From: a virus
DNA: 64,000 nucleotides
Reading direction: 5' to 3' (one strand)
Virus record (IMG/VR): IMGVR_UViG_3300011116_000655
Location: 13,870-77,869 of that record
Below the pieces are notes generated by a model, which saw only the letters and a list, made by a program, of their open reading frames with translations, was not told the origin of the DNA and did no database searches. The number at the start of each line of letters is the position of its first letter. Positions within the stretch are counted from its first letter, which is position 1. Positions 1 to 57,367 of this stretch are shown here, piece after piece. The position numbers were made by a program, and so were the translations under genes.

Positions 1-1079
1 TGGCTTGGATAAGTTCTTTTTTCTGGTACGCCAATAATAGTATCTTTATCATTATCTTTGAGTGCCCTAATACGAACTCTTTGTAGTGGTGTAATACCTT
101 CAACCCCTTCTTGTTGATCAGCAAAGACTTCTGGTTTATTTAAGTCAAGACCTTGTAAATCTTCTGTTCGTACAGCAAACGCAATAGCACCTTCATTCTG
201 TGCTTCTGCAAGGGCACAATAAAAATAGCTTCCACCAGATGAATGACAAGATTCTATGTCTTCTTCTGGGAAGTCTGACATTCTTAATACATCAATAGGG
301 GCACGGGAAAGAACAATAGAATAATCATTGTTTTTTTCGCCTAATGTGGAATCATCTTCTGTTCCAAATTCTGTCCAACTACCATTTGTAAATCTGGTAT
401 TTCCTAATGTTGTTGCAAACTTAATAAGTTCTACGTCTTGAATAAGTTTTGATTGGTTTTTCTGCCACCAATCTGCCATTTTAGTTATTACATCAATTCT
501 TTGTTTGGCATTTACTATTCTGGATTCATTTAACTCAATGTCCCACTTCATTGATTGTTTTTTAGACTCTTCGGTTTCTGAATCTCTTGCAGCGTTCAAA
601 GCAGCTAATTTTGTTTCATGCTCTCGTAATTCTTGTTTTGTTACTACACCCAATTTTCTTAATGCATTTGCAACTGTTGTACTTGATTGCTTTAGTTGGT
701 ACTCGTAAGTTTTAGGATTTTGGATAGATTGTGTATAGGTTACAACAAAGTCAGCTATTTCTTGTGTTGTGTCTCTACCAGCTACTTTTGCTCTTACTTG
801 TTTTACTTGATCTGTAATTTCTACACTTGTACCCGCTGGTTGCATGTTATAAATAAAATCAAGTATTGTTTGTACTTTACCAATGTTTTTCTGAATAAAT
901 GGTATAGCAACTCTTAATTTATCACCAAAAATGTCACTAAATGGTAATACTGATGGGTTCCTTGTAGCAACTTGGGTAGCATTATTAATCAATCTTCTGT
1001 AATGTTGCTCCATTTCGTTGATTTTTTGCTTGCCAACGAAATCTTTCCAATTGCCATAAAATAAATTTTTGTTGCTCAT
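1..1079 (-). CDS. Large hypothetical protein, truncated by the window edge; probable late-expressed virion/internal protein
   Basis: Not in the ORF track because it runs off the edge. My translation from ATG at 1079 gives MSNKNLFYGNWKDFVGKQKINE...LPFSDIFGDKLRVAIPF..., and in the same frame YSIVLSRAPIDVLRMSDF...IESCHSSGGSYFYCALAEA. It is preceded by an AAGGA SD and the late motif at 1100-1107. Confidence 0.8.
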   Translation of the reverse strand, partial: MSNKNLFYGNWKDFVGKQKINEMEQHYRRLINNATQVATRNPSVLPFSDIFGDKLRVAIPFIQKNIGKVQTILDFIYNMQPAGTSVEITDQVKQVRAKVAGRDTTQEIADFVVTYTQSIQNPKTYEYQLKQSSTTVANALRKLGVVTKQELREHETKLAALNAARDSETEESKKQSMKWDIELNESRIVNAKQRIDVITKMADWWQKNQSKLIQDVELIKFATTLGNTRFTNGSWTEFGTEDDSTLGEKNNDYSIVLSRAPIDVLRMSDFPEEDIESCHSSGGSYFYCALAEAQNEGAIAFAVRTEDLQGLDLNKPEVFADQQEGVEGITPLQRVRIRALKDNDKDTIIGVPEKRTYPS

Positions 1080-1099
1080 TGTGTTTTCCTTATCGCAAG

Positions 1100-1107
1100 T
1101 AATTAGT
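1100..1107 (-). promoter_or_regulatory. Putative late promoter (ACTAATTA)
   Basis: Variant of the ACTA(T/A/C)TTA motif found upstream of structural genes; 20 nt upstream of the ATG. Confidence 0.55.
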
Positions 1108-1120
1108 TTTAGATACAAGA

Positions 1121-1148
1121 AAACCGCCAAGACTTAACATCTTGGCGG
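1121..1148 (-). terminator. Rho-independent terminator after hsp20
   Basis: CCGCCAAGA/TCTTGGCGG stem followed by TTTT on the minus strand. Confidence 0.75.
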
Positions 1149-1168
1149 CTTATTTTATGTCTTTTAGA

Positions 1169-4242: not shown

Positions 4243-5808
4243 TTATTGCTGAACAATGGAATAATTAGTTGTTATTAAAGTTCCTGCCGCTGATGCTGCA
4301 TTTTGTATTGCACACCTTGTAACTTTAACGGGGTCGATAACACCAGCGTCCATCATCATAATAATTTTACGATGTAGGAAATCATAACCAGCATCAAATA
4401 CTTCTGATTTAACCATAGATACAATAATGTCGGGAGATTCACCAGCATTTAGTGCCATTTGTCTAATTGGCTCTTCTGCTGCCCTAAGTACAATCTTGAC
4501 TCCTAAAGCCTGTTCCTCGTTGTCTGTAGTCACTTCTAGACCTTCTGTGGCTCTAATAAGTGCTACGCCACCACCTGGGACTATACCCTCTTGTTGGGCA
4601 CTACGGACGGCTTCTAGGGCATCTTCAATACGATGCTTCTTCTCAATCATTTCGACTTCTGTTGCAGCACCTACACGAATAATGCCAATACCAGAAGCAA
4701 GACGAGTAATACGCTCCTGTAAACGTTCACATTCATACATATTCTCCGTCTGTTGTAGTTCTGCTTTGATGATATCGATTTGTCTATCAACTTCTTCCAT
4801 ACCACCATGACCGCCAACAATTGTAGTTAAAGACTTAGCAATCTCAATTTTCTTGGCTCTACCAAAATCCTTAAGTTTAACGTCAGACATTTTTGTGCCA
4901 TTTTCTGTTGCAATAAAGTTTGCACCTACAGAGATAGCAAGATCTTTCATGATGTTTCTACGCTCTTCACCATAACGAGGAGCTTTAACTGCTGCAACCT
5001 TCATTGTGCCTCTCATAGCATTCATGATAAGCGCAGCAAGGGCTTGACCTTCAATTTCATCTGCAACAATTACAAATGGTTTTCCTTCTCTTGCAATAAG
5101 TTCAAGAACAGGTAGCATATCTTGTACAGAATCAAATTTACGATCTGTTACAAGAATGTAGGGATCTTCATATTTAACTACACCCCTTCTTTCATCATTG
5201 ATAAATGCTGATGCGAGATAGCCCGAATCGAAACGAAAACCCTCAACAATATCAAGAGAAGTATCGACAGAGCGTGCTTCTTCAATAGTAATCGAACCAT
5301 CTTTACCTACCTTGTCTACAGCAGTAGCAATTAATTTGCCAATTGTTCTATCGTTATTAGCAGAGATAGAAGCAACGTGTTCAATATCTTCTTCTGAAGA
5401 AATTGGTTTTGCAATCTGAGCCAAACGTGTGACAACAGATTCTACTGCTTTATCAATACCTCGCTTTAGCTCAATAGGAGATACACCAGCAGTTAGGTAT
5501 CGTTGAGCTTCACGAAGAATAGCTCGCGAAAGAACAACAGATGTAGTAGTACCATCACCAGCAAGTGTGGCTGTTTGTTGTGAGGCTTGTTTGATTACTT
5601 GCGCCCCTAGATTCTCAAATGGGTCAGACAACTCAACAAAATTAGCTACAGTTACACCATCTTTTGTAATGATTGGTGTTTTGCCTTTCTCTTGAAGAAT
5701 TACATTTCTGCCTCTTGGGCCTAATGTTGAAGATACATTATCTGCCAATACATTAGCACCCTTCAATAATGCTTCGGACAAAGTACGTCCATCACAATAC
5801 TGTTTCAT
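4243..5808 (-). CDS. groEL: Chaperonin GroEL
   Basis: TLGPRGRNV, ITKDGVTVA, AGDGTTT, GIVPGGG, GVIDPVKV; lacks the GGM tail. Confidence 0.97.
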   Translation of the reverse strand: MKQYCDGRTLSEALLKGANVLADNVSSTLGPRGRNVILQEKGKTPIITKDGVTVANFVELSDPFENLGAQVIKQASQQTATLAGDGTTTSVVLSRAILREAQRYLTAGVSPIELKRGIDKAVESVVTRLAQIAKPISSEEDIEHVASISANNDRTIGKLIATAVDKVGKDGSITIEEARSVDTSLDIVEGFRFDSGYLASAFINDERRGVVKYEDPYILVTDRKFDSVQDMLPVLELIAREGKPFVIVADEIEGQALAALIMNAMRGTMKVAAVKAPRYGEERRNIMKDLAISVGANFIATENGTKMSDVKLKDFGRAKKIEIAKSLTTIVGGHGGMEEVDRQIDIIKAELQQTENMYECERLQERITRLASGIGIIRVGAATEVEMIEKKHRIEDALEAVRSAQQEGIVPGGGVALIRATEGLEVTTDNEEQALGVKIVLRAAEEPIRQMALNAGESPDIIVSMVKSEVFDAGYDFLHRKIIMMMDAGVIDPVKVTRCAIQNAASAAGTLITTNYSIVQQ

Positions 5809-5828
5809 AAAAACTCCGTGTAAATGTT

Positions 5829-5856
5829 AATGTAATCTTATTTTATTAAGTGTCAA
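5829..5856 (-). promoter_or_regulatory. Sigma70-type promoter for groEL
   Basis: TTGACA-16 nt-TACATT on the minus strand. Confidence 0.55.
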
Positions 5857-7064
5857 GACTTTTTTTGATCTGACACAGCAGAAGTCATTTCCACTAGTGT
5901 ATCTTTGATTCTTCCTGCTGTGTCTGATGCGTCTTTACCAGAAACTGCATCATTATTGATTAAAAATGTTTTTGTTTTAAAATAAACATCATCAACGTCA
6001 ACTAATAATTCTTTCATTTTTTCTCTAAAAATTTGGATTTCGTGAGCTTGAGCAGAACAAATAGTTGCTACATCTTCTTGTGTAAGAGACAATTCAAATT
6101 TACTAAGTGTTCTTGCTTTATTAAAAAATATGTCTTTTGGTATAGCAAATGATGTTATTTTTTCTGTATCGCTAACACCATAATCTCTCATTAAATCAAT
6201 TTTTTCTTGTTCGCCTTTTGTTTCTTTGAATTCATAAAATAACTGTAATTGTCCATTTGGTTCATTTATTGCAATCTGAGGATTATGATTAGAAGGAAAT
6301 GATAAAAATATATCTAAACTAATAAAAGATATATTAAATTGTAGCGTTGTTTCTGAGGTTTTTGTAACTATAAGAAACCATAATTTGTCACTTTTACCAG
6401 TTTGGCTTCTTGATATTATGTTATTGTAGTCAAAGAAAGCCAACATATTTTGTAAAGAACCTTTGACAGAAGTAGATGGAGCCGTTAATTTTAAAGACCA
6501 ATATTCACCATCATCATCAATAAGGTCATAAATTGAATATTGATGTGGAGAAATTGTAACATTTTTTCCACCCAAAAATTCAATAAATGTTTCAAAAAAT
6601 GTTCCCGCTGTTTGAGAACTGTAATTTTTTATCATTGTAAAAATAGATGATGCAAACATAATATAAGACAAAGAGCTTGAAAAAGATTTTATTTTATTTT
6701 CTTTTATAAGATCTAATGCTTTTACAAAGTTTTCTAATCTTGTTTGTAAATTTGAACCTCTTGAAATTTTTTGTCTTAAAGTATCATAAAATACTTGTTG
6801 AGCTTCTGGTGTCTCTAGCTCTTGTGGCTTACCTCTAGCTAATTTCTTTACAAAATATTCAATTGGAAGTTGGGAAGCATGTGATAGTTCACCTCTGCTT
6901 ACTGGTTTTGGTCTATCTGCTAAATCGTCAACCTCGTTAAGTAATTGCTTAGTTTTTTCCATACTTTCAAATAGAGCAAAAAGCTCTTTAAGATCCATAG
7001 CTTTTGATTGTTGCTTTGGACTTAAAAAGCTTTCTACTAAATTATCTAATTCGTTATTGTTCAT
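5853..7064 (-). CDS. Late protein with putative PD-(D/E)xK nuclease-like domain
   Basis: AGTFFETFI...IYDLIDDDGEYWSLKL resembles the E...(P)D...(D/E/S)xK core; N-terminal ...LFE...LLNE; late motif 7070-7077 only 5 nt before the ATG. Confidence 0.5.
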   Translation of the reverse strand: MNNNELDNLVESFLSPKQQSKAMDLKELFALFESMEKTKQLLNEVDDLADRPKPVSRGELSHASQLPIEYFVKKLARGKPQELETPEAQQVFYDTLRQKISRGSNLQTRLENFVKALDLIKENKIKSFSSSLSYIMFASSIFTMIKNYSSQTAGTFFETFIEFLGGKNVTISPHQYSIYDLIDDDGEYWSLKLTAPSTSVKGSLQNMLAFFDYNNIISRSQTGKSDKLWFLIVTKTSETTLQFNISFISLDIFLSFPSNHNPQIAINEPNGQLQLFYEFKETKGEQEKIDLMRDYGVSDTEKITSFAIPKDIFFNKARTLSKFELSLTQEDVATICSAQAHEIQIFREKMKELLVDVDDVYFKTKTFLINNDAVSGKDASDTAGRIKDTLVEMTSAVSDQKKS

Positions 7065-7082
7065 GATACTAAATAGTCGAAG

Positions 7083-7778
7083 TTATACAATAATGTCAGC
7101 AATACCAAGTTTTACTGCTTCTTCCGCTGAAAGATAGACGTTTACTTTCTTATCAATCATTTTCTTAAGTTGGCGGAATGACATATTGGTTTCTGCTGCA
7201 AGTGCTTTTAGATAAGCATTTTGAATGTATCGAATTTCATCCATTTCATTTTCAAGATTGTGAAGTGGACCAGCGTTACCACCAATTACTGAATGAATCA
7301 TTACACGACAGTTCTTTCCAATTCTACGCTCACCTTTAGTACCAGCAGCAAGAAGAAGAACACCAGCGGACATTACTTTACCAACACCAAATGTAATAAT
7401 GTCACATTTGTTTTTGATAACTCGCATAATGTCATAAAGCGCAAACATATCATCTGCACTACCACCTGGGGTATTGATAATAAACTCAATAGGTTCGTTC
7501 TCTGTTAGAATCTCAGAATTTGGATCATCTGGATTTGCTGGATACTCTGCTTCACAATTTTCGGCAAGATCAAGCATTACACCAACAATCTGAGAAATCT
7601 TGGCTTCCTCTACTTCACCAAACAGACCAATCGTTCTTGATTCATCTTTGGCACCAGCAGGAGGCATAAAAAGCGTCATTGGCATTGTAGGTTTAGCAGT
7701 TTTTTCCTCTGCTTCATCTACCTCTTCATCGTGGTCATGTTCACCTTCGACTTTCTTACGAGATTTATTGAATAGCAT
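7083..7778 (-). CDS. clpP: ClpP-family protease
   Basis: IINTPGGS, GKVMSAGVLLL (Ser), RVMIHS (His), YLSAEEAVKLGIAD. Confidence 0.9.
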   Translation of the reverse strand: MLFNKSRKKVEGEHDHDEEVDEAEEKTAKPTMPMTLFMPPAGAKDESRTIGLFGEVEEAKISQIVGVMLDLAENCEAEYPANPDDPNSEILTENEPIEFIINTPGGSADDMFALYDIMRVIKNKCDIITFGVGKVMSAGVLLLAAGTKGERRIGKNCRVMIHSVIGGNAGPLHNLENEMDEIRYIQNAYLKALAAETNMSFRQLKKMIDKKVNVYLSAEEAVKLGIADIIV

Positions 7779-7791
7779 TTATACCTCTTTG

Positions 7792-8175
7792 TTAGATTCT
7801 TTTTTCTTTGATTAGCTTCTCAGCGTACTTGGTAGCAGTATCCCAATTATAAAATTGTAAGTCTTTTTTCAAAGGTTGTGGATAGCTGCTGACATAATGT
7901 ATGATAACCGATTCTTTCCAAGTTGTAAACCACTTGTCGAAAAGAGCTAACTGAAAAGTTATTTGCTCTTCTGTGGCACCTTTTTCTTTTAAGATAATGA
8001 TTCTCATTTCTCTTAAGTATTCTAACTGCTCTGCCATCATTATCAAGGATACTAAAATTCTATCTGAAAGTTTCCTTGTAAACTCTGTTGCAATTCCAAT
8101 GTCAAAAATAAATGAAAAGATTCTGGAAAAGATTATACCAGCAACAAAAAATAAAACCCATGATAAATAAGTCAT
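7792..8175 (-). CDS. Hypothetical protein with N-terminal TM helix
   Basis: LSWVLFFVAGIIFSRIFSFIF; GAGG SD. Confidence 0.7.
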   Translation of the reverse strand: MTYLSWVLFFVAGIIFSRIFSFIFDIGIATEFTRKLSDRILVSLIMMAEQLEYLREMRIIILKEKGATEEQITFQLALFDKWFTTWKESVIIHYVSSYPQPLKKDLQFYNWDTATKYAEKLIKEKRI

Positions 8176-8192
8176 GTTACCTCAAACAAAAA

Positions 8193-8234
8193 ACTACGCA
8201 GGATCATTATAACCCTGCGTAGTCAAAAGAGCAA
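8193..8234 (-). terminator. Terminator with embedded sigma70 promoter
   Basis: ACTACGCAGG/CCTGCGTAGT stem plus T-tract; TTGCTC (8234-8229)-17 nt-TATAAT (8211-8206), with the -10 in the loop. Confidence 0.7.
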
Positions 8235-8257
8235 CCTTTATTAATTTATTTTATTTA

Positions 8258-8827
8258 TCAGACTAATCTACGAATAACACGTTTGAGGACTTCATTTATA
8301 ACTTCATCATCTGTGAGGATTTCAATACCTTCTTCAAGTTTTTCATCCTCTTCGGCGGGTTCGGCAGGTTCATCACCCCCTTCATCGCCTCCCTCCATGC
8401 CGAGATCCATTTCCTCTTCTTCGCCTTCGCCACCCATTTCATCAGCTAATCCAAGGTCTTGAAGGGCATCCATTACTGCATCTTTAATAACACTTTTTAA
8501 ATCTTCAACTGAATCAAACTCTACTTCACCTTCGCCTTCCATACCTTCTTCTGGTTCCATGACAGAAGGCTCTTCCATATCCATATCTGCACCATCACCC
8601 ATTTCGCCCATGCCCATGCCCATGCCTTCTGGTTCTTCCATTGCGTCCATACCCATTTCTTGAGGTTCGTCTTTACGGGCATAACTGGCACCGCCATACA
8701 TTTCTTTTAATACTTTTTTACTTTTCTTATTTTCTGTAAGGAAATTTTCTGTTGCATTTTTGTCAATGTTAGCAAGTTTCATCCACTTTGCTACTTGACT
8801 TTCTGATAATAAAGGTTTCTTGCTCAT
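8258..8827 (-). CDS. Acidic Glu/Gly/Met-rich late protein, scaffold/internal-protein-like
   Basis: N-terminal LLSESQVAKWMKLANI, very acidic middle, C-terminal VINEVLKRVIRRL; late motif at 8848-8855. Confidence 0.65.
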   Translation of the reverse strand: MSKKPLLSESQVAKWMKLANIDKNATENFLTENKKSKKVLKEMYGGASYARKDEPQEMGMDAMEEPEGMGMGMGEMGDGADMDMEEPSVMEPEEGMEGEGEVEFDSVEDLKSVIKDAVMDALQDLGLADEMGGEGEEEEMDLGMEGGDEGGDEPAEPAEEDEKLEEGIEILTDDEVINEVLKRVIRRLV

Positions 8828-8885
8828 TTGTATTGCTCCTACACGAATAAATAGTGTCTAAATTATAAAAATACTTTTTTTTTGA

Positions 8886-10234: not shown

Positions 10235-10422
10235 TAATCCTCCACTTCATTTACAAGCTTTACAAGATAATCCATTACTTGCTTATCTGCAACATAATAG
10301 TTATCACCAGCTTTAAATCCGTTACCCAATAATTGCATAAGTCTAAGATCTGGATTTCTTTTCCACGCAATAGAAAGAAACTCTAGCATGTTATTAATTT
10401 CAATAAGTCTATCTATTTTCAT
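10234..10422 (-). CDS. Small conserved phage hypothetical protein
   Basis: W..NPDLRL.QL...D.YY..D pattern. Confidence 0.65.
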   Translation of the reverse strand: MKIDRLIEINNMLEFLSIAWKRNPDLRLMQLLGNGFKAGDNYYVADKQVMDYLVKLVNEVED

Positions 10423-10786
10423 TTAGAAAGTTCTCCAAATTTTGAATTATGTACTCTTTTGAATAACCAGAATCTGGATCTGCATTTGTTTCTGGGTATT
10501 GAACGTTATAAATGTCGTCTTTATAAATGATAAAGATTTCTGGTACTCCATCAATGTTAAACAATTTAAACAACTTTCTTTGAGTTTTTGAATTTATGTT
10601 ACCAAAATAAAAATTATCTTTGTATTGCTCTGCTATTTCATTAAAGATTGGCTTTAAAGCCTTACATAAATAACAAGTATTGCTTGTAAATTTAATCACA
10701 TAAGGTTTATCAGATTTAGTGATTTCGTTAAAATCTTCTAAACCTAATTCTTTAACGATAGAATTATTTTTTATTACTATTTTCAT
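10409..10786 (-). CDS. Thioredoxin-like protein
   Basis: KFTSNTCYLCKALKP (CxxC) and cis-Pro motif GVP. Confidence 0.85.
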   Translation of the reverse strand: MKIVIKNNSIVKELGLEDFNEITKSDKPYVIKFTSNTCYLCKALKPIFNEIAEQYKDNFYFGNINSKTQRKLFKLFNIDGVPEIFIIYKDDIYNVQYPETNADPDSGYSKEYIIQNLENFLNENR

Positions 10787-11078
10787 AATAAGTTATCAAC
10801 CTTTCTGTGTACCATTTAATTTTTTTAAGGTCTTCTAGTGGAGTACCTTTATGTTTATAACGCATAATGTATTTAATTATATTAGCGGTACAAAAAGCTT
10901 CACCCAATCCTTGATCTTCAATAACTGTAATTGCCTCAAGCTCACCAATATTGTAATGTTTTGGATGATCAACCATTTCTGTTTTGTTATTAGATAACTT
11001 TTTTAATTGGTCTTTATCCATAGCAGAACAAACATTTAAGTAGTTTACCGTTCTTGGAAAATATTCATAATCACTCAT
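10764..11078 (-). CDS. DUF3310 / SaV-like (T7 gp1.7-related) protein
   Basis: VDHPKHY...EAITVI...NIIKYIMR..HKG..EDLKK..WY; start moved to the ATG at 11078 (MSDYEYF). Confidence 0.75.
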   Translation of the reverse strand: MSDYEYFPRTVNYLNVCSAMDKDQLKKLSNNKTEMVDHPKHYNIGELEAITVIEDQGLGEAFCTANIIKYIMRYKHKGTPLEDLKKIKWYTERLITYYENSNKK

Positions 11079-15405: not shown

Positions 15406-15447
15406 ACCCTCCAAGGACATACTATCCAAGGAGGGTCATAGTGTCAA
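15406..15447 (-). promoter_or_regulatory. Sigma70 promoter within an RBS-sequestering hairpin (uvsE)
   Basis: TTGACA-17 nt-TAGTAT; imperfect stem ACCCTCC..GGA/TCC..GGAGGGT whose 3' arm contains the GGAGG SD. Confidence 0.65.
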
Positions 15448-16232
15448 TGGTTTCTTTTCTTATTTTCTCTCATACCTTTATCAAGTGCAAGCGTTCCGTA
15501 TTGTTGTCCACCTATTCTTGCTCGTAATGCATCCATACCAGCATCTTGAGAAACTGGGCCTAAAGATGCTTGCTGAGAACGACTTGATTGTGTAGAAGCC
15601 ACATTTTGTGGATTTGTTGGTTCTGGAACTTTTATGTTCAATACATTTTCGTATTTTTGAATTTCACTTCTATCTAATGTAGGACCAGAAACTTTTCTCA
15701 TTTCGTGCGCCTCAGAAGAAAATTGTTGTCCTTTTTCTGCTCTTTTTATAGAAAGAGGAAATACTTCTATAGTATACCCTTTATCATATCTTTTAGCATG
15801 GTTGTAGTAAAAGACTATTACTTTTTTTGTTTTCATTTCAGAAATGTATGTTTCTAATCTTTGTATAGCTAGTTGTTTATTTTCATCATTTTTTGCAATT
15901 TTTATTTTGTTGTTGTAGTCATCTAAATCAAACTCATAATCTATTAAAAATTCTCTTAATGGTAAAGGAATTAAGTTTGCTTGTTTTTTTTGAATCATTT
16001 CTCTAAATTTTGGAAAAAGATTTATAATTTGAGCACCTGTTACGGATAACAATTCTTCTTTTTCTCCAAGTTCTGAACCTGCTTCACTTACTTCGACTTC
16101 CGTATCTATAACTGGTTGGTTTCTTGGTGATCCATAAATTGGACCTCTTTCAAAAGGGCTAATTTCATTTAGCAATCCAACAAGTTCTTCTCTAATAACT
16201 TGTCTAAGTTGTGATTCTGTTAATCTTTTCAT
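15444..16232 (-). CDS. Late hypothetical protein with N-terminal LTESQLRQVIREEL tag
   Basis: Tag nearly identical to the N-terminus of 36163..36795; late motif at 16254-16261. Confidence 0.7.
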   Translation of the reverse strand: MKRLTESQLRQVIREELVGLLNEISPFERGPIYGSPRNQPVIDTEVEVSEAGSELGEKEELLSVTGAQIINLFPKFREMIQKKQANLIPLPLREFLIDYEFDLDDYNNKIKIAKNDENKQLAIQRLETYISEMKTKKVIVFYYNHAKRYDKGYTIEVFPLSIKRAEKGQQFSSEAHEMRKVSGPTLDRSEIQKYENVLNIKVPEPTNPQNVASTQSSRSQQASLGPVSQDAGMDALRARIGGQQYGTLALDKGMRENKKRNH

Positions 16233-16238: not shown

Positions 16239-16270
16239 GGGTTCCTTACCAATTAAATAGTAAGGAACCC
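16239..16270 (-). terminator. dnaE terminator containing the late promoter and SD of the next gene
   Basis: Perfect 11-bp stem GGGTTCCTTAC/GTAAGGAACCC followed by ATTTTT; ACTATTTA at the stem/loop junction; TAAGGA in the 3' arm. Confidence 0.75.
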
Positions 16271-27712: not shown

Positions 27713-28729
27713 TTACCAAGCTCTGCAAGACCAATAACGAGCTTTTGTTTTTGGTCCTGGGTTATCGCAATTATGTCTTGCTCTAAAAGATTTACGTCTT
27801 CCTGGTATGTTCTTTTTAATCTTCATGTTCTTATCGCCAAAGTTTACTTTTTTAACATTACCAGTTTTTGGATCTCGTACATAAACTTTGGATTTTTTAA
27901 CATCACCTTTCATTGGTTTATTAAGGGTTACTGTGCGACCTTGGTATTTTGCTTCTTGAATTATTGTTCTCTGACTTTCCAATAACTCTTGAAGGCAACC
28001 AGCGCAAACAAGTGTTCCATCGTCTAAATGGGCATCATCGTATTCTGTTGATTCAGAAACTACTTGCGCTCCGCTTTGTTGTAGTTCTTGACCAGTATCT
28101 GTAATAAACTTTGTTAAATCTCCTACTTTTGCTAAAGTAAGAGAATTTTTTAAATGTGTTACAAGTTCAAGTGCGTCTTTAAGTGAAACTAAGTTATTAG
28201 TCATACGTGCATTTGCTAAATTTGCTAAAATCATACTAGACAAAACAATAGTAGCAGATGCACCAGTAAATCTATTAAAACCTTTTGTTAAATCACCACC
28301 ACCTAATTTAGTAAGACCTTTTTGTGCCGCAGACAAAACAGCTTCAGTTGTTTTATAAATTGGTCCTGGTTTTTTTGCCTCTTGAATTTGAGTAAGCAAT
28401 AATTTAGCATTTTGTGCAGCTTCAATTGGATCATCATCTTGTAATACATTTTTCAACAAATAATCTATTGCTGCATCAATTTCTTTTTTAGAAATAAATG
28501 CTTGTAACTGACGGATAACACTTGGGTCACTAATAGACTTTCTTGTGTTATCAGATGGTCCTGGTTTCACAACTTTTTGGTTACTGAGAGCAATAATTTT
28601 TTGGATTGGGGTTTGTTGAGGAGCAACAGCTTGTGGTTGTTGTTGTGGGGCGGCTTGTTGTTCATTTAAATAAGTTCTCCAACCTTCCATTAAAAGTTGT
28701 TGATTTTGAAATGATGAAAATTTAGTCAT
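27713..28729 (-). CDS. Late multidomain protein with CTS-like N-terminus and C-terminal basic Cys-containing (DUF6321-like) domain
   Basis: QLLMEGWRTYLNE; CAGC; IQE/AKYQGRTVTLNKP...KKVNFG...RRKSFRARHNC...ARYWSCRAW; late motif at 28734-28741. Confidence 0.7.
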   Translation of the reverse strand: MTKFSSFQNQQLLMEGWRTYLNEQQAAPQQQPQAVAPQQTPIQKIIALSNQKVVKPGPSDNTRKSISDPSVIRQLQAFISKKEIDAAIDYLLKNVLQDDDPIEAAQNAKLLLTQIQEAKKPGPIYKTTEAVLSAAQKGLTKLGGGDLTKGFNRFTGASATIVLSSMILANLANARMTNNLVSLKDALELVTHLKNSLTLAKVGDLTKFITDTGQELQQSGAQVVSESTEYDDAHLDDGTLVCAGCLQELLESQRTIIQEAKYQGRTVTLNKPMKGDVKKSKVYVRDPKTGNVKKVNFGDKNMKIKKNIPGRRKSFRARHNCDNPGPKTKARYWSCRAW

Positions 28730-28736: not shown

Positions 28737-29609
28737 TTAGTCCTTTTTCTTCTTTTTAGTCCATGAAATTGGCTTAGATGATTGTTTTTTTCTTAATGGA
28801 CCTTTACCAGCAGATTTACATTGTGCTTTTGTTGGTCTACAAGCTGGATACTTGCCACCACTATCTGCGGAGCTTCTACCACATGGACCACCAGTTCTAC
28901 AATTTATCCAACCTTTTCCTTTATTACGAGCAAACCAACCATGAAGTCCTTGTTCTTTTTCTTTAGAGAAGTTTGGTTTGTATGGCTTTTTCTTTTTGGC
29001 TTCATCTAATTCTTCTTCAATTATTTCTATGTCACCAAGGTCTATTTCTTCATTCTTTTTTTTTCTGCCTTGACAATGTGCCCTTTGAGAAAAACCTTTT
29101 GGATTTTTGCAATTGATAGAACGTTTGTACTTTTCAGACCATTCTTCTTCAAGTACCTCTATTTCTTCTAAAACTAGTTGTTGATCTATTTCTTCATCTG
29201 TTGCATTCTCAGAAATACCTTTCCAGATCTTTCCTTGACGGCATTTAACAACAGCACCAGAAGCATAAGCAGAAGGCCAAACATCATATTTACGTTTGGC
29301 AATTCTTGTGCAACGATCACCACTTTTTTTCTTTTTTGCTTCTTGAAGATTTGAAAGAAATTGTTGTATTTTTGGTTTAATGTCAGCAGCAGTAATGCCT
29401 TTTTGTTTAGCACTTGCAACAACATTTTTTATGTCATTTTCTATTGCATCAACTGCTATCTGTATTTCATTATCTTTTTTTTCTGCTGGAGATAAATCTT
29501 CTGGCTTTACTTTAGCTTGTTGATTTGTGTTTGTAGTTTGTTGTACAGAAGCTGTATCTGCTTCTTGCAAAAATTGTTTCCAACTCTCTAAAATTAAATT
29601 ATATTTCAT
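28737..29609 (-). CDS. Late polyprotein-like protein with three basic Cys-containing modules (DUF5872-like)
   Basis: Start MKYNLILESWKQFLQE at 29609; modules DRC..KYDVWPSAYASGAVVKC, WSEKYKRSINC..PKGFSQRAHC, WINC..GGPCG..KYPACRP..C; late motif at 29615-29622. Confidence 0.7.
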   Translation of the reverse strand: MKYNLILESWKQFLQEADTASVQQTTNTNQQAKVKPEDLSPAEKKDNEIQIAVDAIENDIKNVVASAKQKGITAADIKPKIQQFLSNLQEAKKKKSGDRCTRIAKRKYDVWPSAYASGAVVKCRQGKIWKGISENATDEEIDQQLVLEEIEVLEEEWSEKYKRSINCKNPKGFSQRAHCQGRKKKNEEIDLGDIEIIEEELDEAKKKKPYKPNFSKEKEQGLHGWFARNKGKGWINCRTGGPCGRSSADSGGKYPACRPTKAQCKSAGKGPLRKKQSSKPISWTKKKKKD

Positions 29610-35436: not shown

Positions 35437-35805
35437 CTACTTTAGTAATTCTTTAATAACCTCTTTTACAATTTCTTCAAGAAGGTTTTCTTTCATGTGT
35501 TTAAAGTATTGTACTTGTTTTTCTCTTTTTTCTGCACCTTTTCTAGAATCATAACAGCCAAGATTCTTACCACTCTTTTTTGATTTCAAACAATACTTAG
35601 AACCTTGTTTAACAATGTGTTCACCAATAGGAGGAGCAGATTTAGAACGTTCCATAGATGGTTTTTCACTATAAGGGGCACCAGCGGGTTGATTGCCATG
35701 ACCAATAACTCTTTTCTTTTTACGACTGTGCCCTGCCTTCATCTTTCTCTGAAAAGGCTCTGTCTGTTCTAATAAGTCTCTAAGTTGTTGTACTAAAGGG
35801 TCCAT
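35437..35805 (-). CDS. Basic late protein, putative two-module internal-head polyprotein
   Basis: LLE/QTEPFQRKMK...; IGE/HIVKQGSKYCLKSKKSGKNLGCY...; C-terminal LLEEIVKEVIKELLK. Confidence 0.65.
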   Translation of the reverse strand: MDPLVQQLRDLLEQTEPFQRKMKAGHSRKKKRVIGHGNQPAGAPYSEKPSMERSKSAPPIGEHIVKQGSKYCLKSKKSGKNLGCYDSRKGAEKREKQVQYFKHMKENLLEEIVKEVIKELLK

Positions 35806-36162: not shown

Positions 36163-36795
36163 TTATCTCCTATCTTTTGTTGTTATGTCAGCACCATGAA
36201 CCGCTGTAATCAACGCCAAAGTAAGACACATAAGAGCAATAGCTAAACTTAGATTTTGTTTGTCTTGAGCTTTTACTGCTTTATTTAATTCTTGGTTTTT
36301 TTCAATATATAATTCTATATCATTTTTAAATTTTTGACCTTCTGGCGATCTCATAAATTTATCTACTTCACTTGATTTACCACTTGGATCAAGACTGACA
36401 AACCTTTTTGCTTGTTCTATTAAACTGTTATCTATTGTGGTTTTAATGCCTTTATAAATTAATTGTTTATTATCAACATCAAATTTAATATTTGGGCTTA
36501 AGCTTTCAATGTATTTTTTAGATAATACTGGAAGCTGCTCTTTATCTACTTGAGATGCACCAATTGTCCTGGCTACTTGAGCTATCGCTGGACCTCCAGA
36601 TAATGCTTCATCAGATTGGTTTATAGCTGTACCTAATGAAGCTCCACCACCAAATGCAACAGCTAATGGAAAAGCAAATTTAGCAAATAATTGTCCAAGT
36701 CTTCCTTCGTTTAAAAGATCTGGATTATTTTCACTTAATACTTCTAAAAGTTCTTGTCTAACTATAAGTCTTAATTGTGATTCTGTTATAATCAT
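36163..36795 (-). CDS. Late membrane-type protein with N-terminal ITESQLRLIVRQEL tag
   Basis: Tag followed by LLNE/G; hydrophobic segments at both ends; late motif at 36827-36834. Confidence 0.7.
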   Translation of the reverse strand: MIITESQLRLIVRQELLEVLSENNPDLLNEGRLGQLFAKFAFPLAVAFGGGASLGTAINQSDEALSGGPAIAQVARTIGASQVDKEQLPVLSKKYIESLSPNIKFDVDNKQLIYKGIKTTIDNSLIEQAKRFVSLDPSGKSSEVDKFMRSPEGQKFKNDIELYIEKNQELNKAVKAQDKQNLSLAIALMCLTLALITAVHGADITTKDRR

Positions 36796-45322: not shown

Positions 45323-45324
45323 TT

Positions 45325-46467
45325 TTAAACCTCACTATTCTTTATGTTTGCTAAGACTTTCCAACGGTTTATAATTGATTCTGATAAATGGTCAGGTCTT
45401 TGCTCCCTTGATTTAGTATGTATTAATCTAAGTACTTCACTAGCTAAATTTTCTAATTGTCCAATTTTTTGCTTAAGTAAGTTTTTTTGTTTAAATAAAT
45501 TAAGACTTGGTTTTTTAAATTCTTTTAAATCTGGTTCTAATTTATTTGTTATTAAAGTTTCAATGTCTGTATTTCCATCAATAATACTCTTGATTATAAG
45601 CAGTTTAATTTCTAATCCTAATAAAAATAAATACTTACCCTCTGGTGTTTCATTTGATTTAGCTCTTAGTCTTTTATAATTTAATCCTCCAATAAGAGTA
45701 CCTAGACTAATTGTACCTAAAAGGATAGATAAACCAGTAATTGGATCTAACACTTCAGACACAAGACCAGCAAGATCATTAGCAAGATCTTGTCTTCTTT
45801 GCTGTTTTCTTTGATCCATAAAAATCTTATCTGATAATTGTTGAATTTTATTTTCAATTTGTTCATAAACAGATTTAAAATTTTGGTTAGATTTTAAAAA
45901 TTCAACTGTTTTTTCAACAAAATTTATAAGATTGTTTTGATCTCTAAAATCAACATAATTTTGTACTTGAGACAATAAATCTACATAGTTAATTTCATCT
46001 GATACTTCCTCTACAGGTACTGGCGTTGCAGCCTCCTCTGTTGGTGCATCTTCTGGACCTAAAGGTACAGTTATTGCAGTTGTAGAAGTTGATTGACCTT
46101 TTTTCTTTTGTTCTTCGTTATAAGCTAAAGTATTTAAAGTAGAAAAAATTGGTGATGTTTTAGGTATAGGTAAGCCTATACCATTAGGTAACCAGCCACC
46201 ATTTGCATTTGCTTTGTATTTAACATCCTTTAATTGAATTTCTGTTCCTATTTCTGGTTTCCAGTTGGAAGGTACAGTACCTTTTGGTTTGGTTTCTTCT
46301 GGTTCTTGTTGTGATTGAGAAGATTCAGTATCAGTAACAGGAGTTTCTTCTTTAGGTGATTTAGACTTTATTTTAGTTTGTGGGTTATAATAACTTCTAA
46401 TTGCTTGCGTACCAGCAGCGGCAGTACCAGCTTTTGTTTTTTGTTCTTTTATTATTATCTTTATCAT
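45325..46467 (-). CDS. Late hypothetical protein with TM segment and C-terminal LSESIINRWKVLANIK tag
   Basis: Own late motif at 46473-46480; hydrophobic ITGLSILLGTISLGTLIGGL. Confidence 0.65.
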   Translation of the reverse strand: MIKIIIKEQKTKAGTAAAGTQAIRSYYNPQTKIKSKSPKEETPVTDTESSQSQQEPEETKPKGTVPSNWKPEIGTEIQLKDVKYKANANGGWLPNGIGLPIPKTSPIFSTLNTLAYNEEQKKKGQSTSTTAITVPLGPEDAPTEEAATPVPVEEVSDEINYVDLLSQVQNYVDFRDQNNLINFVEKTVEFLKSNQNFKSVYEQIENKIQQLSDKIFMDQRKQQRRQDLANDLAGLVSEVLDPITGLSILLGTISLGTLIGGLNYKRLRAKSNETPEGKYLFLLGLEIKLLIIKSIIDGNTDIETLITNKLEPDLKEFKKPSLNLFKQKNLLKQKIGQLENLASEVLRLIHTKSREQRPDHLSESIINRWKVLANIKNSEV

Positions 46468-46493
46468 GTTATTAAATAGTTTATTAAAAAATA

Positions 46494-54381: not shown

Positions 54382-54431
54382 TTAAATACCCTCCTTGGAA
54401 TTAACCAACACAATAAATAGTTTTATAAAAC

Positions 54432-54470
54432 AAGAAAACCCCCAAACTTTTCAGAATGGGGGGTTTTCTT
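54432..54470 (-). terminator. Strong terminator after the major capsid gene
   Basis: AAGAAAACCCCC/GGGGGTTTTCTT 12-bp inverted repeat. Confidence 0.8.
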
Positions 54471-54490
54471 TTCCTAATTAGGCTGCTTTA

Positions 54491-56254
54491 TCAAGCTCCG
54501 CTTTCACCAAGGAGGCCACGAATGATTACCAAGCCGTAAAGGTCTGGTTTAACCATTTTCTTAGCGTAACGGGTCATTACGCCTTTGCGTGGAACAAAGT
54601 CCTCAGTACCAAAGATGGTAGGAGTGACTTGTAGTGGTACGTATGGTGCGTAAACGTAACCAGATTCAAGGAAGCTGGAACCCTTACGACCAACGAGGAT
54701 TACGTTACGGAGGAAGTATGGATCAACGTATACATCAAACTTCTTGGAGATTGAACCAACGTTAACTGCGCCAATTTCACCTTTCTCGTCTTCGTGAGTT
54801 ACTTTAGCTCTGAAGCCAGATGTGAACTCAAGAATGTTTGCGGTTTCTGGACCACATACGATGAAGTTAGCACCGCCACGGAGGGTCTTTCTGTGGATTT
54901 GGGCTGAAACGTCATTGATTGTTTCAATGAGGGTTTCGTACCATGCACTTACAGTACCTGTGAAGTCTGGAGCTTTAGCTGATGCACCAATCTCAACACC
55001 TGTGGTTCTGTTGACGAAAAGACCTGGGGATCTTGACCAGTAGAATGTACCAGCGGTAGCACCTTTGATAAGATCTTCAAGAATTTCTCTGTCAATTTCA
55101 AGACCAATTTGTTCAGAAAGAATTGAGGTAAGCTCAACTTCTGCATCAAGATTGTGGTAAGCATTAAGGTCTTGACCAAGTTCTGGTGTCCATTTTGCTT
55201 TGAGTTTCTTGGTTACAGCGGTGATGCTGATTGAATCGACTTTGATATCGATTTCTGGGATATTTGCATTACCTTCAAGACCCCAAGTTGATGTACCAGC
55301 AATAGCACCAAGAGCGTTGGTTGAACCAGCAGCTACTGATGTACCAAATGGATCAATAATTGGGAAACTAAGTACTGGTGAAGTTCCAGCAGCAGTTACG
55401 TCTGTTGAAACGTTAGCAGCAGTTTTACCAGCAGCACCAGCAAATACAAAGTATACTGCATCTGCTGAGGTTGTGTGGGAACCGACTACTGTTCCGTCAC
55501 CAAGTCTTGTAAGTCTTCTGACAAGAGTTGAGTTGTTAGAACCAGTTAAGTTTGGTGTTGAACCACTTAAAGAAACAGCAACAAAATCTTTTTTGTTAAA
55601 GTTTGTAAGGGAAGCCAAACTTGCTGATACTAGTACTAATGCAGTACCTGTTCCAGATGCACCAGAAAGGAAGTCAGCGTCATAACGTACCCATGAATCA
55701 AGTGTTCCGTCACCAAAGACACCAGAAGCAAGAGCGACGAATGTTGGGCTTGTGTATGAACCTGTTGGTGAACTGTAACCATTATTCATGTTGTAAAAAG
55801 CTTTCTCAGCATTTAAACCAGTTAAGCTTACACCGCCTGTGATTTGTTGACCAAGAACACCACCACCGTAGAGTGAATCATTTGTTCCGTAGCCAAGTCT
55901 TGGGGCACCAGCAGTATCTGAAACCTTGAAATCAAGGAAGAAGATAAGACCAGATGGAAGGCTCATTGGTTGTACGGAGACTAAATCATTGGCGATAAGA
56001 CCAGCAAATACTCTGCGAACGATTGGGAATGCAACTGCTGCGAAACCTTCTACGTCACCAGATGCCATTGTGTTAGACTCACGAAGAAGCTCTTTAGCTT
56101 GATTTTCGAGAAGTCTTGCCATTGTGTGTTTGGTTCTCTCGTTAGAAAGACCTTCAAGAAGACCTGTTTTTTCCCATTTACCTAAGAGGGCTGAGCCTTC
56201 TGCTTGAAGATCTCTTTGTACCATACCCTCTGTCAATTTTTCAATAATAGACAT
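54491..56254 (-). CDS. Major capsid protein (T4 gp23-like)
   Basis: KW...LLEG, LLENQ, P.VRR, VQPM..PSGLIF, KLKAKWTPELGQDL.A.H.LDAE.EL..ILS.QI..EIDREI, YAPYVPL, TRY. Confidence 0.96.
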   Translation of the reverse strand: MSIIEKLTEGMVQRDLQAEGSALLGKWEKTGLLEGLSNERTKHTMARLLENQAKELLRESNTMASGDVEGFAAVAFPIVRRVFAGLIANDLVSVQPMSLPSGLIFFLDFKVSDTAGAPRLGYGTNDSLYGGGVLGQQITGGVSLTGLNAEKAFYNMNNGYSSPTGSYTSPTFVALASGVFGDGTLDSWVRYDADFLSGASGTGTALVLVSASLASLTNFNKKDFVAVSLSGSTPNLTGSNNSTLVRRLTRLGDGTVVGSHTTSADAVYFVFAGAAGKTAANVSTDVTAAGTSPVLSFPIIDPFGTSVAAGSTNALGAIAGTSTWGLEGNANIPEIDIKVDSISITAVTKKLKAKWTPELGQDLNAYHNLDAEVELTSILSEQIGLEIDREILEDLIKGATAGTFYWSRSPGLFVNRTTGVEIGASAKAPDFTGTVSAWYETLIETINDVSAQIHRKTLRGGANFIVCGPETANILEFTSGFRAKVTHEDEKGEIGAVNVGSISKKFDVYVDPYFLRNVILVGRKGSSFLESGYVYAPYVPLQVTPTIFGTEDFVPRKGVMTRYAKKMVKPDLYGLVIIRGLLGESGA

Positions 56255-56272
56255 AGTATAACTCCTTAAATG

Positions 56273-57367
56273 TTATTTATTTTTAATACCAGCTAATCTT
56301 TGCATTCTCTCTATTACTGGAGGGGTTGCATCGTTATTTCTGGTTTGCATGATTATTGATGAAGTTCTATTAATTGCTTCGCTTAGTGATTTTGGAGCAG
56401 TAACTTTGTCATTGCCCGCCACGGTGCTTTGAAGTGTTTGGTAGATTGTTTTTGCTTCATCGGCTGTATTTGCATTGGATAGTGCTTCGACAATCTTATT
56501 TTTTTGTCGCTCATTCAAGGAGTTACTATTCAATACTTTATTTTTGTATAAAAGTTTGGCATTTGAAACTGTTAAAGATTCAAGCCTCTCTTTAAGTGTT
56601 GAAACTGCTGATTCGTACTCTTCAACTCTGTTTGCAAGTGCTTCAGCAATTTCAGAAATTTTAGCAAGTTTACCTTCGACTGAATCTAGTTTTCTTGCTA
56701 ATAATTTATTTTCTTTTGTAAGTTTTTTGTTTTCTTCGCCAACTTCTGCGGCTTTTTCTTCCGATGCAAGTTGGGCTTTTTTTGCAAGTGATACGTCTTT
56801 TGCGTATTCTACTTCAAGTGAATTAGCAGGGTATTCAATGTTACCGTATGGAACGTTTCTTGCATCAACTGTAAGTTTTTCATAAAGGTCAAGAAGTTCG
56901 TCTTTATCAACTTCGTATTCTTCTTGAAGTGCTACTGGTTCTGGACCTGGGGTTGGCCCTAAACTGGTTGGTGTTTTACCACCTATTGGCACTCCAGCTT
57001 CACTAGCCATATCTTCAATGTCAGAAAGATTTAAATCAATTGTTACTTGTTCTTTGTCTTCTGGGCAAGCACATAATTTTTGACCATCTCTAAAAGCTGA
57101 TGGGCTTTGATTTCTTACATTAGCACCACCACCCATAGGTTGATCACCACCCATTCCAGCAGCAGATGTACCAACACCAGATGCTTCCGCAGCAGATGGT
57201 TCAGTAAATCCTTCTTCTTGCTCTAAAAGACTTCTTAAAGCTTCTTTTACATCTGTTGAGTATTTTTCTAAAACTTGAGCCTCTGCATTTTTAAGTGCGG
57301 CTTCTTTAAGTGCAGTTGCATCAATAATTGCTTGTTCTAACAAAGAAGACATTAAATTGTTCTCCAA
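56273..57367 (-). CDS. Prohead core/scaffolding protein
   Basis: Acidic coiled-coil protein immediately upstream of the MCP; NAKLLY.N, C-terminal ERMQRLAGIK; late motif at 57389-57396. Confidence 0.8.
   Translation of the reverse strand: MENNLMSSLLEQAIIDATALKEAALKNAEAQVLEKYSTDVKEALRSLLEQEEGFTEPSAAEASGVGTSAAGMGGDQPMGGGANVRNQSPSAFRDGQKLCACPEDKEQVTIDLNLSDIEDMASEAGVPIGGKTPTSLGPTPGPEPVALQEEYEVDKDELLDLYEKLTVDARNVPYGNIEYPANSLEVEYAKDVSLAKKAQLASEEKAAEVGEENKKLTKENKLLARKLDSVEGKLAKISEIAEALANRVEEYESAVSTLKERLESLTVSNAKLLYKNKVLNSNSLNERQKNKIVEALSNANTADEAKTIYQTLQSTVAGNDKVTAPKSLSEAINRTSSIIMQTRNNDATPPVIERMQRLAGIKNK

Follow-up and report, generated by a model that had tools for sequence, protein, structure and literature searches.

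Short end tags on unrelated late proteins of an uncultured T4-like phage, one of them shared with the scaffold

Head-directed peptides in described viruses

The capsid targeting sequence (CTS) of T4 was described in the internal proteins IPI, IPII, and IPIII (Mullaney and Black 1996; reviewed in PMC9026906 and PMC9958956); its residues 4 and 7 serve targeting and its residues 8 and 10 serve processing (PMC9026906). IPII and IPIII both start with MKTYQEFIAE. We analyzed a 64,000-nucleotide stretch (the window) of an uncultured T4-like phage that likewise has a short N-terminal leader, starting with MK, common to otherwise unrelated late proteins. In this leader, tag (c), the spacing aromatic-x-x-aromatic-[ILV]-x-E is that of the T4 leader, in which two aromatic or hydrophobic targeting positions lie three residues apart ahead of [ILV]-x-E, the gp21 cutting site. 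However, tag (c) has 14 residues (MKLLxENW[KR]xF[LI]xE) rather than 10, shows no detectable homology to the CTS, is found on at least 35 cargo families including enzymes, with as many as 7 genes in one array, and coexists with two more tag classes.

T4 Alt, a packaged enzyme with propeptides at both ends, is cut at ITE-6 and LTE-619 (PMC5694885). The tags described here also occur at either terminus, and the very short M-x-x-[LI]-T-E start of Alt resembles the MKRLTE or MIITE with which tag (a) starts. Tag (a) differs in that it goes on as a conserved 17-residue helix to a second L[NS]E, and the Alt ends are not known on other proteins. The first-pass annotation proposed a loading code richer than the single T4 CTS, which is a fair description, but the principle is not new because the T-even phages are already known to have polymorphic internal-protein genes with CTS-like leaders (PMC9026906). 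In both cases the cargo is variable and non-essential, and related phages keep the leader but differ in the mature part. The present phage differs in having several leader classes, of which one is a copy of the scaffold tail, a much broader choice of cargo, and tagged genes that are scattered among replication genes, each with its own late motif. The giant phages phiKZ, 201phi2-1, and SPN3US carry long propeptides on head and ejection proteins (PMC5694885); a protease related to gp21 cuts many of their head proteins behind Glu, and a targeting role is suspected for the propeptides. Those propeptides have at least 100 residues and little sequence in common, whereas the tags here have 14–23 residues and are near-identical across cargo.

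The scaffolding proteins of P22-type phages have a coat-binding C-terminal end, and nested protease and scaffold genes with a common C-terminal tail occur in lambda (C/Nu3) and in herpesvirus. As in these viruses, the extreme C-terminus of the present scaffold is its most conserved part, and a second protein may enter the procapsid by bearing the scaffold tail. Unlike in these viruses, separate unrelated genes bear the tail, most often moved to the N-terminus.

Tagged genes and their late motif

Every peptide quoted by the first-pass annotation was found at its gene, and all of the genes lie on the − strand (Table 1; proteins are named below by the lower coordinate of their genes). The tag-bearing late proteins are mutually unrelated, each bearing a short end tag from a small set, and similar end tags occur in hundreds of related viral contigs. 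All three tag families, (a), (b), and (c), which had been claimed as recurrent peptides on unrelated proteins, are real and above chance. The tag patterns were defined post hoc on data already inspected; independent support comes from their conservation in syntenic relatives and their terminal placement in IMG/VR. The tags were absent from the cultured T4-like phages P-SSM2, Syn9, HTVC008M, and RM378.

Table 1. Coordinates of the tags and associated features in the window.
Feature	Position	Strand	Remarks
Tag (a)	16164..16232	-	Residues 1-23 of the 262-aa protein 15444..16232 (MKRLTESQLRQVIREELVGLLNE); terminates in LNE
Tag (a)	36730..36795	-	Residues 1-22 of the 210-aa protein 36163..36795; terminates in LSE
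Tag (b), N-terminal	8765..8827	-	Acidic 189-aa protein 8258..8827 (LSESQVAKWMKLANI)
Tag (b), C-terminal	45328..45387	-	380-aa protein 45325..46467 (LSESIINRWKVLANIKNSEV); LSE before tag
Tag (c)	28661..28729	-	Residues 1-23 of the basic 338-aa protein 27713..28729 (…LLMEGWRTYLNE)
Tag (c)	29562..29609	-	Residues 1-16 of the basic Cys-bearing protein 28737..29609 (MKYNLILESWKQFLQE)
Weak tag (c) variant	1014..1079	-	N-terminus of a 914-aa protein leaving the window (…GNWKDFVGKQKINE)
gp22-like head scaffold	56273..57352	-	359 aa, ATG at 57352; immediately upstream of major capsid gene
Scaffold C-terminal island IERMQRLAGIKNK	56276..56314	-	Template of tag (b)
Scaffold island PKSLSEAINR	56366..56395	-	Second conserved C-terminal block; contains LSE motif
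Conserved C-terminal helix LLEEIVKEVIKELLK	35440..35484	-	122-aa protein 35437..35805
Conserved basic amphipathic C-terminal helix DEVINEVLKRVIRRLV	8261..8326	-	8258 protein
gp23-like major capsid protein	54491..56254	-	Conserved motif LLRE|S
ClpP-like protease	7083..7778	-	Pfam CLP_protease 1.3e-32; PHROG head maturation protease 1e-23
Late-type motif ACTATTTA	16254..16261	-	29 nt upstream of 15444
Like motif	57389-57396		Scaffold
Like motif	8848-8855		
Like motif	46473-46480		
Like motif	36827-36834		
Like motif	28734-28741		
Like motif	29615-29622		
Like motif	1100-1107		

The motif ACTAnTTA was found 25 times on the − strand and 5 times on the + strand. It lies 12–50 nt upstream of 9 of 10 tagged genes compared with 9 of 85 other genes (Fisher p = 3.7e-7), and also upstream of the scaffold, sheath, and tube genes. 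None of the replication proteins on the contig carries a tag. The claimed placement at protein ends, the tie to late genes, and the co-occurrence with this motif were borne out.

Conservation of the three tag families

The N-termini of the 15444 and 36163 proteins gave a BLOSUM62 score of 50 over an ungapped 14-mer, which is within the true-paralog range, whereas unrelated protein pairs of the contig scored at most 42. A helix is predicted for residues 6–22 of the 15444 protein (low-confidence model), and the cargo of the 36163 protein, the gene of which is missing from the syntenic record G002, has a hydrophobic segment at its C-terminus. In relatives, tag (a) is nearly invariant across 6 unrelated cargo clusters. 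All 15 (a) tags are closed by L[NS]E. In relatives, the locus after the DnaE gene holds one or two differing (a)-tagged genes, and another occurs at a separate locus. The proposed modularity was supported: one tag is found on unrelated cargo, and the cargo is exchanged at fixed loci. Tag (a) makes up the third class and is restricted to its lineage.

The C-terminal ends of the 35437 and 8258 proteins, which had been regarded as amphipathic ends related to tag (a), exist and are kept in orthologs (a 328-aa ortholog of the 35437 protein has both ends alike). Their kinship to tag (a) is not supported: against an HMM of that tag, both score lower than shuffled decoys. Short amphipathic helices can resemble one another by chance, which may explain these two ends, and within the window the scores of the (b) and (c) pairs, 39 and 36, fall inside the all-against-all background. 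As an account of the three families, chance is extremely unlikely, and is refuted, given the score of the (a) pair, the terminal position of 79 of 81 (b) and 78 of 90 (c) independent IMG/VR matches, and the retention of the tags in orthologs while the remainder of the protein diverges; it could still apply only to the 35437 and 8258 C-terminal ends.

The scaffold was identified by position, composition, orthologs P0011–P0069, and tblastn matches to IMG/VR gp22-like genes adjoining gp23/gp21. Its residues P320–A326, R329, R349, M350, R352, L353, A354, G355, and I356 are invariant in 24 orthologs, and its conserved C-terminus consists of PKSLSEAINR, a variable linker, and ERMQRLAGIKNK. The PKSLSEAINR island corresponds to the LSES..NR part of tag (b), which is a compact copy of this C-terminus. 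The description of the tags as scaffold-mimicking therefore holds for (b); it fails for (a) and (c), the HMMs of which matched none of the scaffold orthologs above decoys. The pattern [RK][WM]x[KRV]LA[NG]I occurs three times (8258 N-terminus, 45325 C-terminus, and scaffold C-terminus) against 0.0 expected from shuffles. In-frame RMQKLAGI in IMG/VR is located 1–4 residues before the stop in 66 of 81 matches, and 63 loci with this C-terminal form match gp22-like scaffold and gp23 by tblastn (36–37 loci also gp21). In 13 further matches it follows Met within 20 residues in small unrelated proteins.

The 8258 tag is 96–100% conserved in orthologs, compared with 62–68% in the middle of the protein. 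This protein is acidic and of low complexity (pI 4.1) with both end helices conserved, like the acidic-tailed T4 gp67, and the N-terminally (b)-tagged IMG/VR proteins are mostly small and acidic; furthermore, some tagged genes lie between portal and protease genes. These features would suit tagged proteins that, like T4 gp67 and gp68, belong to the scaffold or core as minor parts, use the shared helices as core-assembly interfaces, and are themselves degraded in maturation. Nothing would then be delivered to the host, and the tags would be modules for assembly and not a code for cargo. We regard this as unlikely: the diversity of cargo, enzyme domains among it, the basic 27713, 28737, and 35437 proteins (pI 9.5–9.8), and the presence or absence of tagged genes among close relatives fit essential core parts poorly.

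In regard to tag (c), the 27713 ortholog in G002 reads ENFKNFIETEE and the 28737 orthologs, the window copy of which truly starts at the ATG at 29609, read ENWKKFLVEE and ENWRTFLKEA; the weaker WKDFV...INE form at 1014–1079 is real. The pattern W[RKQ]x[FYW][LIV]x[EQ] was found 4 times against 0.055 expected, each time within the first 30 residues, with two matches outside the window (genome 8333–9169 and 9166–12204). In IMG/VR, 78 of 90 matches to the tag (c) pattern begin no more than 12 residues past an ATG, mostly exactly 3. The common form of the tag heads 47 proteins of 35 cargo clusters, which include cytidylyltransferase-like, GNAT, HD, and NUDIX proteins. Much of this cargo in relatives consists of nucleotide-metabolism-type enzymes, which need not be virion components. 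In its layout, tag (c) follows the T4 CTS and not the scaffold.

Cargo is exchanged at fixed loci while the promoter-hairpin and gene start in front of it are conserved, and complete genomes contain (c)-tagged genes in tandem arrays. Both observations could also be explained if the gene starts acted as DNA or RNA, either as recombination linkers for cassette exchange or as translation-initiation regions, with a peptide of no role. The codons of tag (c), however, vary freely (five Leu codons at Leu4; AAC 28 vs AAT 26 at Asn7; TTT 33 vs TTC 21 at Phe11), the 30 nt upstream are unconserved and contain almost no information, and conservation ends at Glu14. Selection thus acts on the peptide. The nucleic acid explanation is largely refuted by these codon and upstream patterns and is very improbable; tag (b) moreover occurs at both N- and C-termini.

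Proteases and a possible role in prohead loading

A [LIV]-x-E motif stands next to every tag: it follows N-terminal tag (b) in 13 of 13 cases, and LSE, ISE, or IVE precedes the C-terminal (b) tags. The presence of [LI]xE alone (300 observed on the contig vs 243 expected) is weak evidence because this motif is common in helices. Glu59 in the LLRE|S motif of the capsid protein is invariant in 42 relatives; T4 gp23 is cut in this region. The ClpP-like gene is the only head-protease-like gene on the contig, and a gp21-type protease was not found in this part (~43%) of the genome. In relatives, a gp21-type gene is adjoined by (c)-tagged genes in 5 loci, and each of five complete genomes (180–195 kb, 4–8 (c) tags each) has exactly one Peptidase_S77 gene.

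GroEL-like and ClpP-like genes adjoin the doubly tagged 8258 gene, and the 45325 protein may be a tail component because its gene sits in the tail module between a baseplate-hub-like gene and a putative tape measure, upstream of the latter. These positions and the enzymatic cargo of relatives would accord with helices that dock to another late complex (a phage chaperonin, the ClpP-like protease, or a metabolic assembly) unconnected with the capsid, the likeness of (b) to the scaffold reflecting a shared partner outside the head. This is a doubtful explanation, given that the ClpP-like gene occurs only at orthologous loci of close relatives and is absent from other tag-bearing loci, that tag (c) has the T4 CTS spacing, that gp21 is adjoined by tagged genes, and that the scaffold works inside the prohead.

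We consider it fairly probable, by comparison with T4, that the tags are removable CTS-like address peptides for prohead loading. From the features above we infer that they would target late proteins to the assembling prohead core, as the 10-residue CTS does for the T4 internal proteins, with tag (c) as the CTS counterpart. In this reading, each tag forms a short amphipathic helix at one terminus of its protein and is linked to the cargo by [LIV]-x-E, the putative cutting site under the rule of the T4-type (gp21, Peptidase_S77) prohead proteases, which would clip the tags after assembly. Tag (b), as a copy of the conserved scaffold tail, would occupy whatever prohead site that tail binds; the view of the first-pass annotation that this site is on the capsid protein, for the tail and so for the tags, is an assumption carried over from other phages. 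Some tagged proteins, such as the acidic 8258 protein, may be core parts that are later degraded, and the basic 27713 and 28737 proteins and the enzymes of relatives would be retained in the head, from where they could reach the host together with the DNA. If this reading is true, these phages would load a changeable cargo into the capsid.

Contig setting and the putative late motif

A viral contig of 77.9 kb, approximately 43% complete by CheckV, contains the 64-kb window; no gp21-type (Peptidase_S77) protease gene was found on the contig. Every gene lies on the − strand, and genes are named here by their lower window coordinate. In addition to the capsid and scaffold genes, the contig encodes a tail sheath, a tail tube, and a baseplate-hub-like protein, which are interleaved with replication genes. 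The source of the contig is a distant T4-like myophage. The sole protease encoded is ClpP-like (Pfam, 1.3e-32); its gene lies a short way downstream of gene 8258, which is doubly tagged. T4-like phages normally use gp21, and a ClpP-type protease is unusual there. The arrangement of the gene run at 4243-8827, to which it belongs, is kept in the close relatives L006 and L007. The three tandem paralogs directly upstream of the scaffold gene, where T4 has its portal and protease genes, have a common start, MSLPLP[ED]LTFYR[ML]PD, and a common end, LKAAP. No family match was obtained for them; they may be fibre or decoration proteins. The tagged proteins of the window were compared with Pfam and PHROGs, and none could be named; only 27713 and 28737 gave matches, in their C-terminal parts, to families of unknown function.

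Positions of the features discussed (window coordinates unless another record is named)
Feature	Position	Strand	Remarks
gp23-like major capsid protein gene	54491..56254	−	closest cultured relative Flavobacterium phage immuto, 49% identity
Coiled-coil scaffold gene	56273..57352	−	directly upstream of the capsid gene
Three tandem paralogs	57647-60680	−	348, 333, and 330 aa
Gene run behind late motifs	4243-8827	−	acidic 8258 protein, 127-aa membrane protein, ClpP-like protease, 403-aa unknown protein, GroEL-like chaperonin
Inverted repeat	16240-16275	−	late motif in loop region
722-aa and preceding 380-aa proteins	43154-46467	−
122-aa protein 35437	35437-35805
Ortholog of 35437 in related locus L011	9381-10367		328 aa, both termini kept
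Three-gene (c)-tagged operon (L008)	genome 8333-14999, extending to window 1-1130
(c)-tagged array, genome G004	58139-60632		five to seven consecutive genes in G004 and G006
(c)-tagged array, genome G006	10414-15470
Composite tag, immuto locus L001	4774-5238		154-aa protein
Composite tag, related locus L181	850-903

The motif ACTAnTTA occurs in 25 copies on the − strand vs 5 on the + strand and stands 12–50 nt ahead of the starts of structural genes, including those for the scaffold, sheath, and tube; we infer that it is a late promoter. The first-pass annotation had described the motif as accompanying nearly all tagged genes, and the count agreed with this: 9 of 10 tagged genes carry it vs 9 of 85 others (Fisher p = 3.7e-7), the exception being the second gene of a tagged operon. 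Two gene starts were corrected by means of the motif, to 29609 and 1079. At the inverted repeat listed in the table, the ACTATTTA motif lies between the arms (TTCCTTAC ... GTAAGGAA), and the ribosome-binding site follows at once. L007 has kept this hairpin, and like inverted repeats were observed upstream of other tagged genes.

Three peptide families at protein termini

Every peptide quoted in the first-pass annotation was found in its place. The tags begin at the initiator Met or a few residues after it, and tag (b) occurs at the C-terminus as well. In an all-against-all comparison of 14-residue windows, the tag (a) pair at the N-termini of 15444 and 36163 scored 50, among true paralogs. The tag (b) and (c) pairs scored 39 and 36, within the background, and are rescued by their position. 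The tag (c) pattern W[RKQ]x[FYW][LIV]x[EQ] occurs 4 times on the contig vs 0.055 expected, with every copy in the first 30 residues, and the tag (b) pattern occurs 3 times vs 0 expected and is terminal every time. A likeness of the tags by chance is contradicted by the terminal-placement statistics.

Residues 1–40 of the 15444 protein were used as the query for tag (a), and ten proteins were found in which MKRLTESQ[LI]RQVIREELVGLLNE is nearly invariant and the remainder differs. Together with syntenic IMG/VR records, 15 carriers were obtained, which fall into 6 cargo clusters; every tag ends in L[NS]E. The locus that follows the DnaE gene holds two different (a)-tagged genes in one relative and a third kind in another. 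A relative that lacks the 36163 gene has one more (a)-tagged gene, between its RecA-like and deaminase-like genes. The DNA of tag (a) varies at synonymous sites. Tag (a) is a module. The immuto protein immuto35A_190 has an (a)-like tag. A pattern search gave 227 matches, of which comparison with the query confirmed only 2. The C-terminal ends of 35437 and 8258 had also been regarded as akin to tag (a); this relation was not upheld, the tag (a) HMM scoring them below shuffled decoys. Both ends are conserved among orthologs. The L011 ortholog of 35437 has an insertion or expansion in the middle, between the conserved ends. In the metagenomic protein P0008 (288 aa), tag (a) is internal, preceded by an N-terminal part of 110 residues that closes with ENKK; cargo of the 15444 type likewise closes with ENKKR. 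P0008 may represent two tagged cassettes fused in one reading frame or a miscalled start.

Tag (c), an aromatic-x-x-aromatic-[LIV]-x-E peptide, is kept in orthologs (ENWKKFLVEE, ENWRTFLKEA, and ENFKNFIETEE). A scan with LxENW[KR]xF.xE gave 90 matches, 78 of which start within 12 residues after the ATG, mostly as MKLLxENW. The conservation ends at Glu14; M1, K2, and L3 lay outside the search pattern. That such conserved gene starts act at the DNA level is contradicted because the codons of tag (c) vary synonymously and the 30 nt upstream are unconserved. Forty-seven of the (c)-tagged proteins form 35 cargo clusters, including cytidylyltransferase-like, GNAT, HD, and NUDIX proteins. Proteins in common with this contig are encoded at 25 of the 79 tag (c) loci, and the tagged gene adjoins a gp21-type protease gene at 5 loci. 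Five complete genomes of 180–195 kb (G003–G007) contain 4–8 tags (c) each, often on genes that follow one another in arrays, together with a single Peptidase_S77 gene apiece. The arrays of G004 and G006 (complete genomes of 180–191 kb) recall the variable internal-protein loci of T-even phages. The tag (c) HMM, for which the positive control on this contig worked, found none in P-SSM2, Syn9, HTVC008M, RM378, Mel-JY01, or immuto, and a tblastn search of cultured phages with a 22-residue tag (c) query gave no match.

Two more tag (c) carriers are encoded just outside the window and form one three-gene tagged operon with the 914-aa protein ending at 1079. The operon encodes a 278-aa protein followed by two paralogs of approximately 1000 aa that have a common Cys/His-bearing core, SCHxxGGxYFYCAL. 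These proteins matched no Pfam or PHROG family and have homologs in the related loci L143, L149, and L168.

In regards to tag (b), 59 relatives of the scaffold are conserved in two C-terminal islands, PKSLSEAINR and ERMQRLAGI(K/T)NK, with a variable linker between them. RMQRLAGI(K/T)NK forms the extreme C-terminus of the scaffold and is invariant in 24 aligned orthologs (R349, M350, R352, L353, A354, G355, and I356). The tags (b) of 8258 (N-terminal) and 45325 (C-terminal) consist of the same two islands minus the linker. IMG/VR was scanned with a DNA pattern for RMQKLAGI, and of the 81 in-frame matches obtained, 66 lie 1–4 residues from the stop codon; 63 of these 66 loci match the gp22-like scaffold and gp23 by tblastn, with gp21 as well in 36–37 loci. 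Another 13 of the 81 matches lie within 20 residues after Met on small, mostly acidic, unrelated proteins, whose cargo diversity was judged by eye from visibly diverse sequences, and [LIV]xE follows the tag in all 13. Immuto carries the motif at the end of its scaffold and N-terminally on two small proteins (immuto35A_42 and immuto35A_187). The motif also ends the scaffold of Microcystis phage Mel-JY01. An HMM search did not find tag (b) in HTVC008M or Syn9. The first-pass proposal that the tags mimic the scaffold held for tag (b) only: the HMMs of tags (a) and (c) matched no scaffold above decoys, and these tags were rejected as copies of scaffold helices for this phage.

It is possible, though unlikely, that the tags serve some other late complex; 45325 lies in the tail module. 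The 722-aa protein listed in the table is weakly similar to the tape measure of immuto (E = 7e-4). The 380-aa protein before it has a hydrophobic segment and a C-terminal tag (b), and no homolog was found in any related locus compared.

Comparison with targeting and cutting in T4

The T4 internal proteins IPII and IPIII start with MKTYQEFIAE and IPI with MKTFKEF. Residues 4 and 7 of the T4 capsid targeting sequence (CTS) mainly carry targeting, and residues 8 and 10 processing (PMC9026906). The counterpart of its Y-Q-E-F-I-A-E in tag (c) is W-x-x-[FY]-[LIV]-x-E, whereas tags (a) and (b) do not show this spacing as such and have [LIV]xE only at their end or next to it. The tags share with the CTS the form of a short leader at the very N-terminus, of 10–20 residues in the T4-type class and 14–23 residues here. 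They also share the presence of one leader on unrelated mature proteins, and the cargo clusters of tags (a) and (c) (6 and 35, respectively) bear out the earlier description of the carriers as unrelated.

T4 gp21 cuts after Glu in [LI]-x-E, and Alt is cut at ITE-6 and LTE-619 (PMC5694885); the Alt sequence was checked for both sites. Here, a cut-type motif stands after the N-terminal tags and before the C-terminal tags. In the capsid protein, the region corresponding to the T4 gp23 cut retains LLRE|S, and Glu59 is invariant in 42 relatives. In P22-type scaffolds the capsid-binding end is C-terminal; the conserved motif at the extreme C-terminus of the present scaffold is known from sequence. 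We know of no solved or measured complex of the end of a T4-type scaffold with the major capsid protein.

The most economical reading of these sequence data is that the tags would be removable peptides that address proteins to the prohead core. The CTS would have its counterpart in tag (c), tag (b) would be a mimic of the scaffold tail, and tag (a) would form a third class. Modelling suggests that the tags are helices; confidence in the predicted structures is low (mean pLDDT of 44 for the 15444 protein and 47 for the 8258 protein). The 8258 protein is acidic and resembles T4 gp67, and the 27713, 28737, and 35437 proteins have pI values of 9.5–9.8. Carriers like 8258 look like core parts, and 27713, 28737, and 35437 look like internal proteins.

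A possible address code and its meaning

The mechanisms of core localisation in the T4-type prohead were called ‘mysterious’ in a 2023 review (PMC9958956). It is possible, if on balance rather unlikely, that environmental T4-like phages use a combinatorial address code with at least three tag classes, each docking at a different site of the prohead core. Tag (b) would dock at the scaffold-tail site, tag (c) at the CTS site, and tag (a) at a third site. Where dozens of exchangeable proteins are placed, and in how many copies, would depend on the tag class. Many cargoes would be enzymes (NUDIX, HD, GNAT, nucleotidyltransferase, and HAD-like) that are released by clipping and injected together with the DNA, as an arsenal of early-acting effectors. 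Composite tags were observed in two loci. The immuto protein listed in the table starts with tag (b), immediately followed by ITESQ, the start of tag (a), and in L181 tag (c) is followed by the (b)-like QQRLAGL. Such composites might be intermediates of tag exchange.

The principle is already known from the T4 CTS and the polymorphic internal-protein genes of T-even phages (PMC9026906). What is new is that several tag classes coexist, that a copy of the scaffold tail is used at the N- or the C-terminus, and that the cargo is so broad, and no mention of the tag motif strings in a phage context was found in the literature searched. To our knowledge, one targeting peptide has been known so far, from one phage. 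Natural variation here gives three classes of peptide that are clearly bounded, occur in hundreds of copies, and are carried by dozens of kinds of cargo. The identity of one of these classes with the tail of the scaffold itself suggests a concrete docking site, as well as competition between scaffold and cargo. Immuto (Flavobacterium phage vB_FspM_immuto, host Flavobacterium sp. LMO8) is a cultured carrier. If the address reading is true, the tags would be portable means of loading proteins into phage heads. The reading would also account for the late genes dispersed among replication genes and would imply that uncultured aquatic phages have many hidden proteins that are carried in the virion and probably injected.
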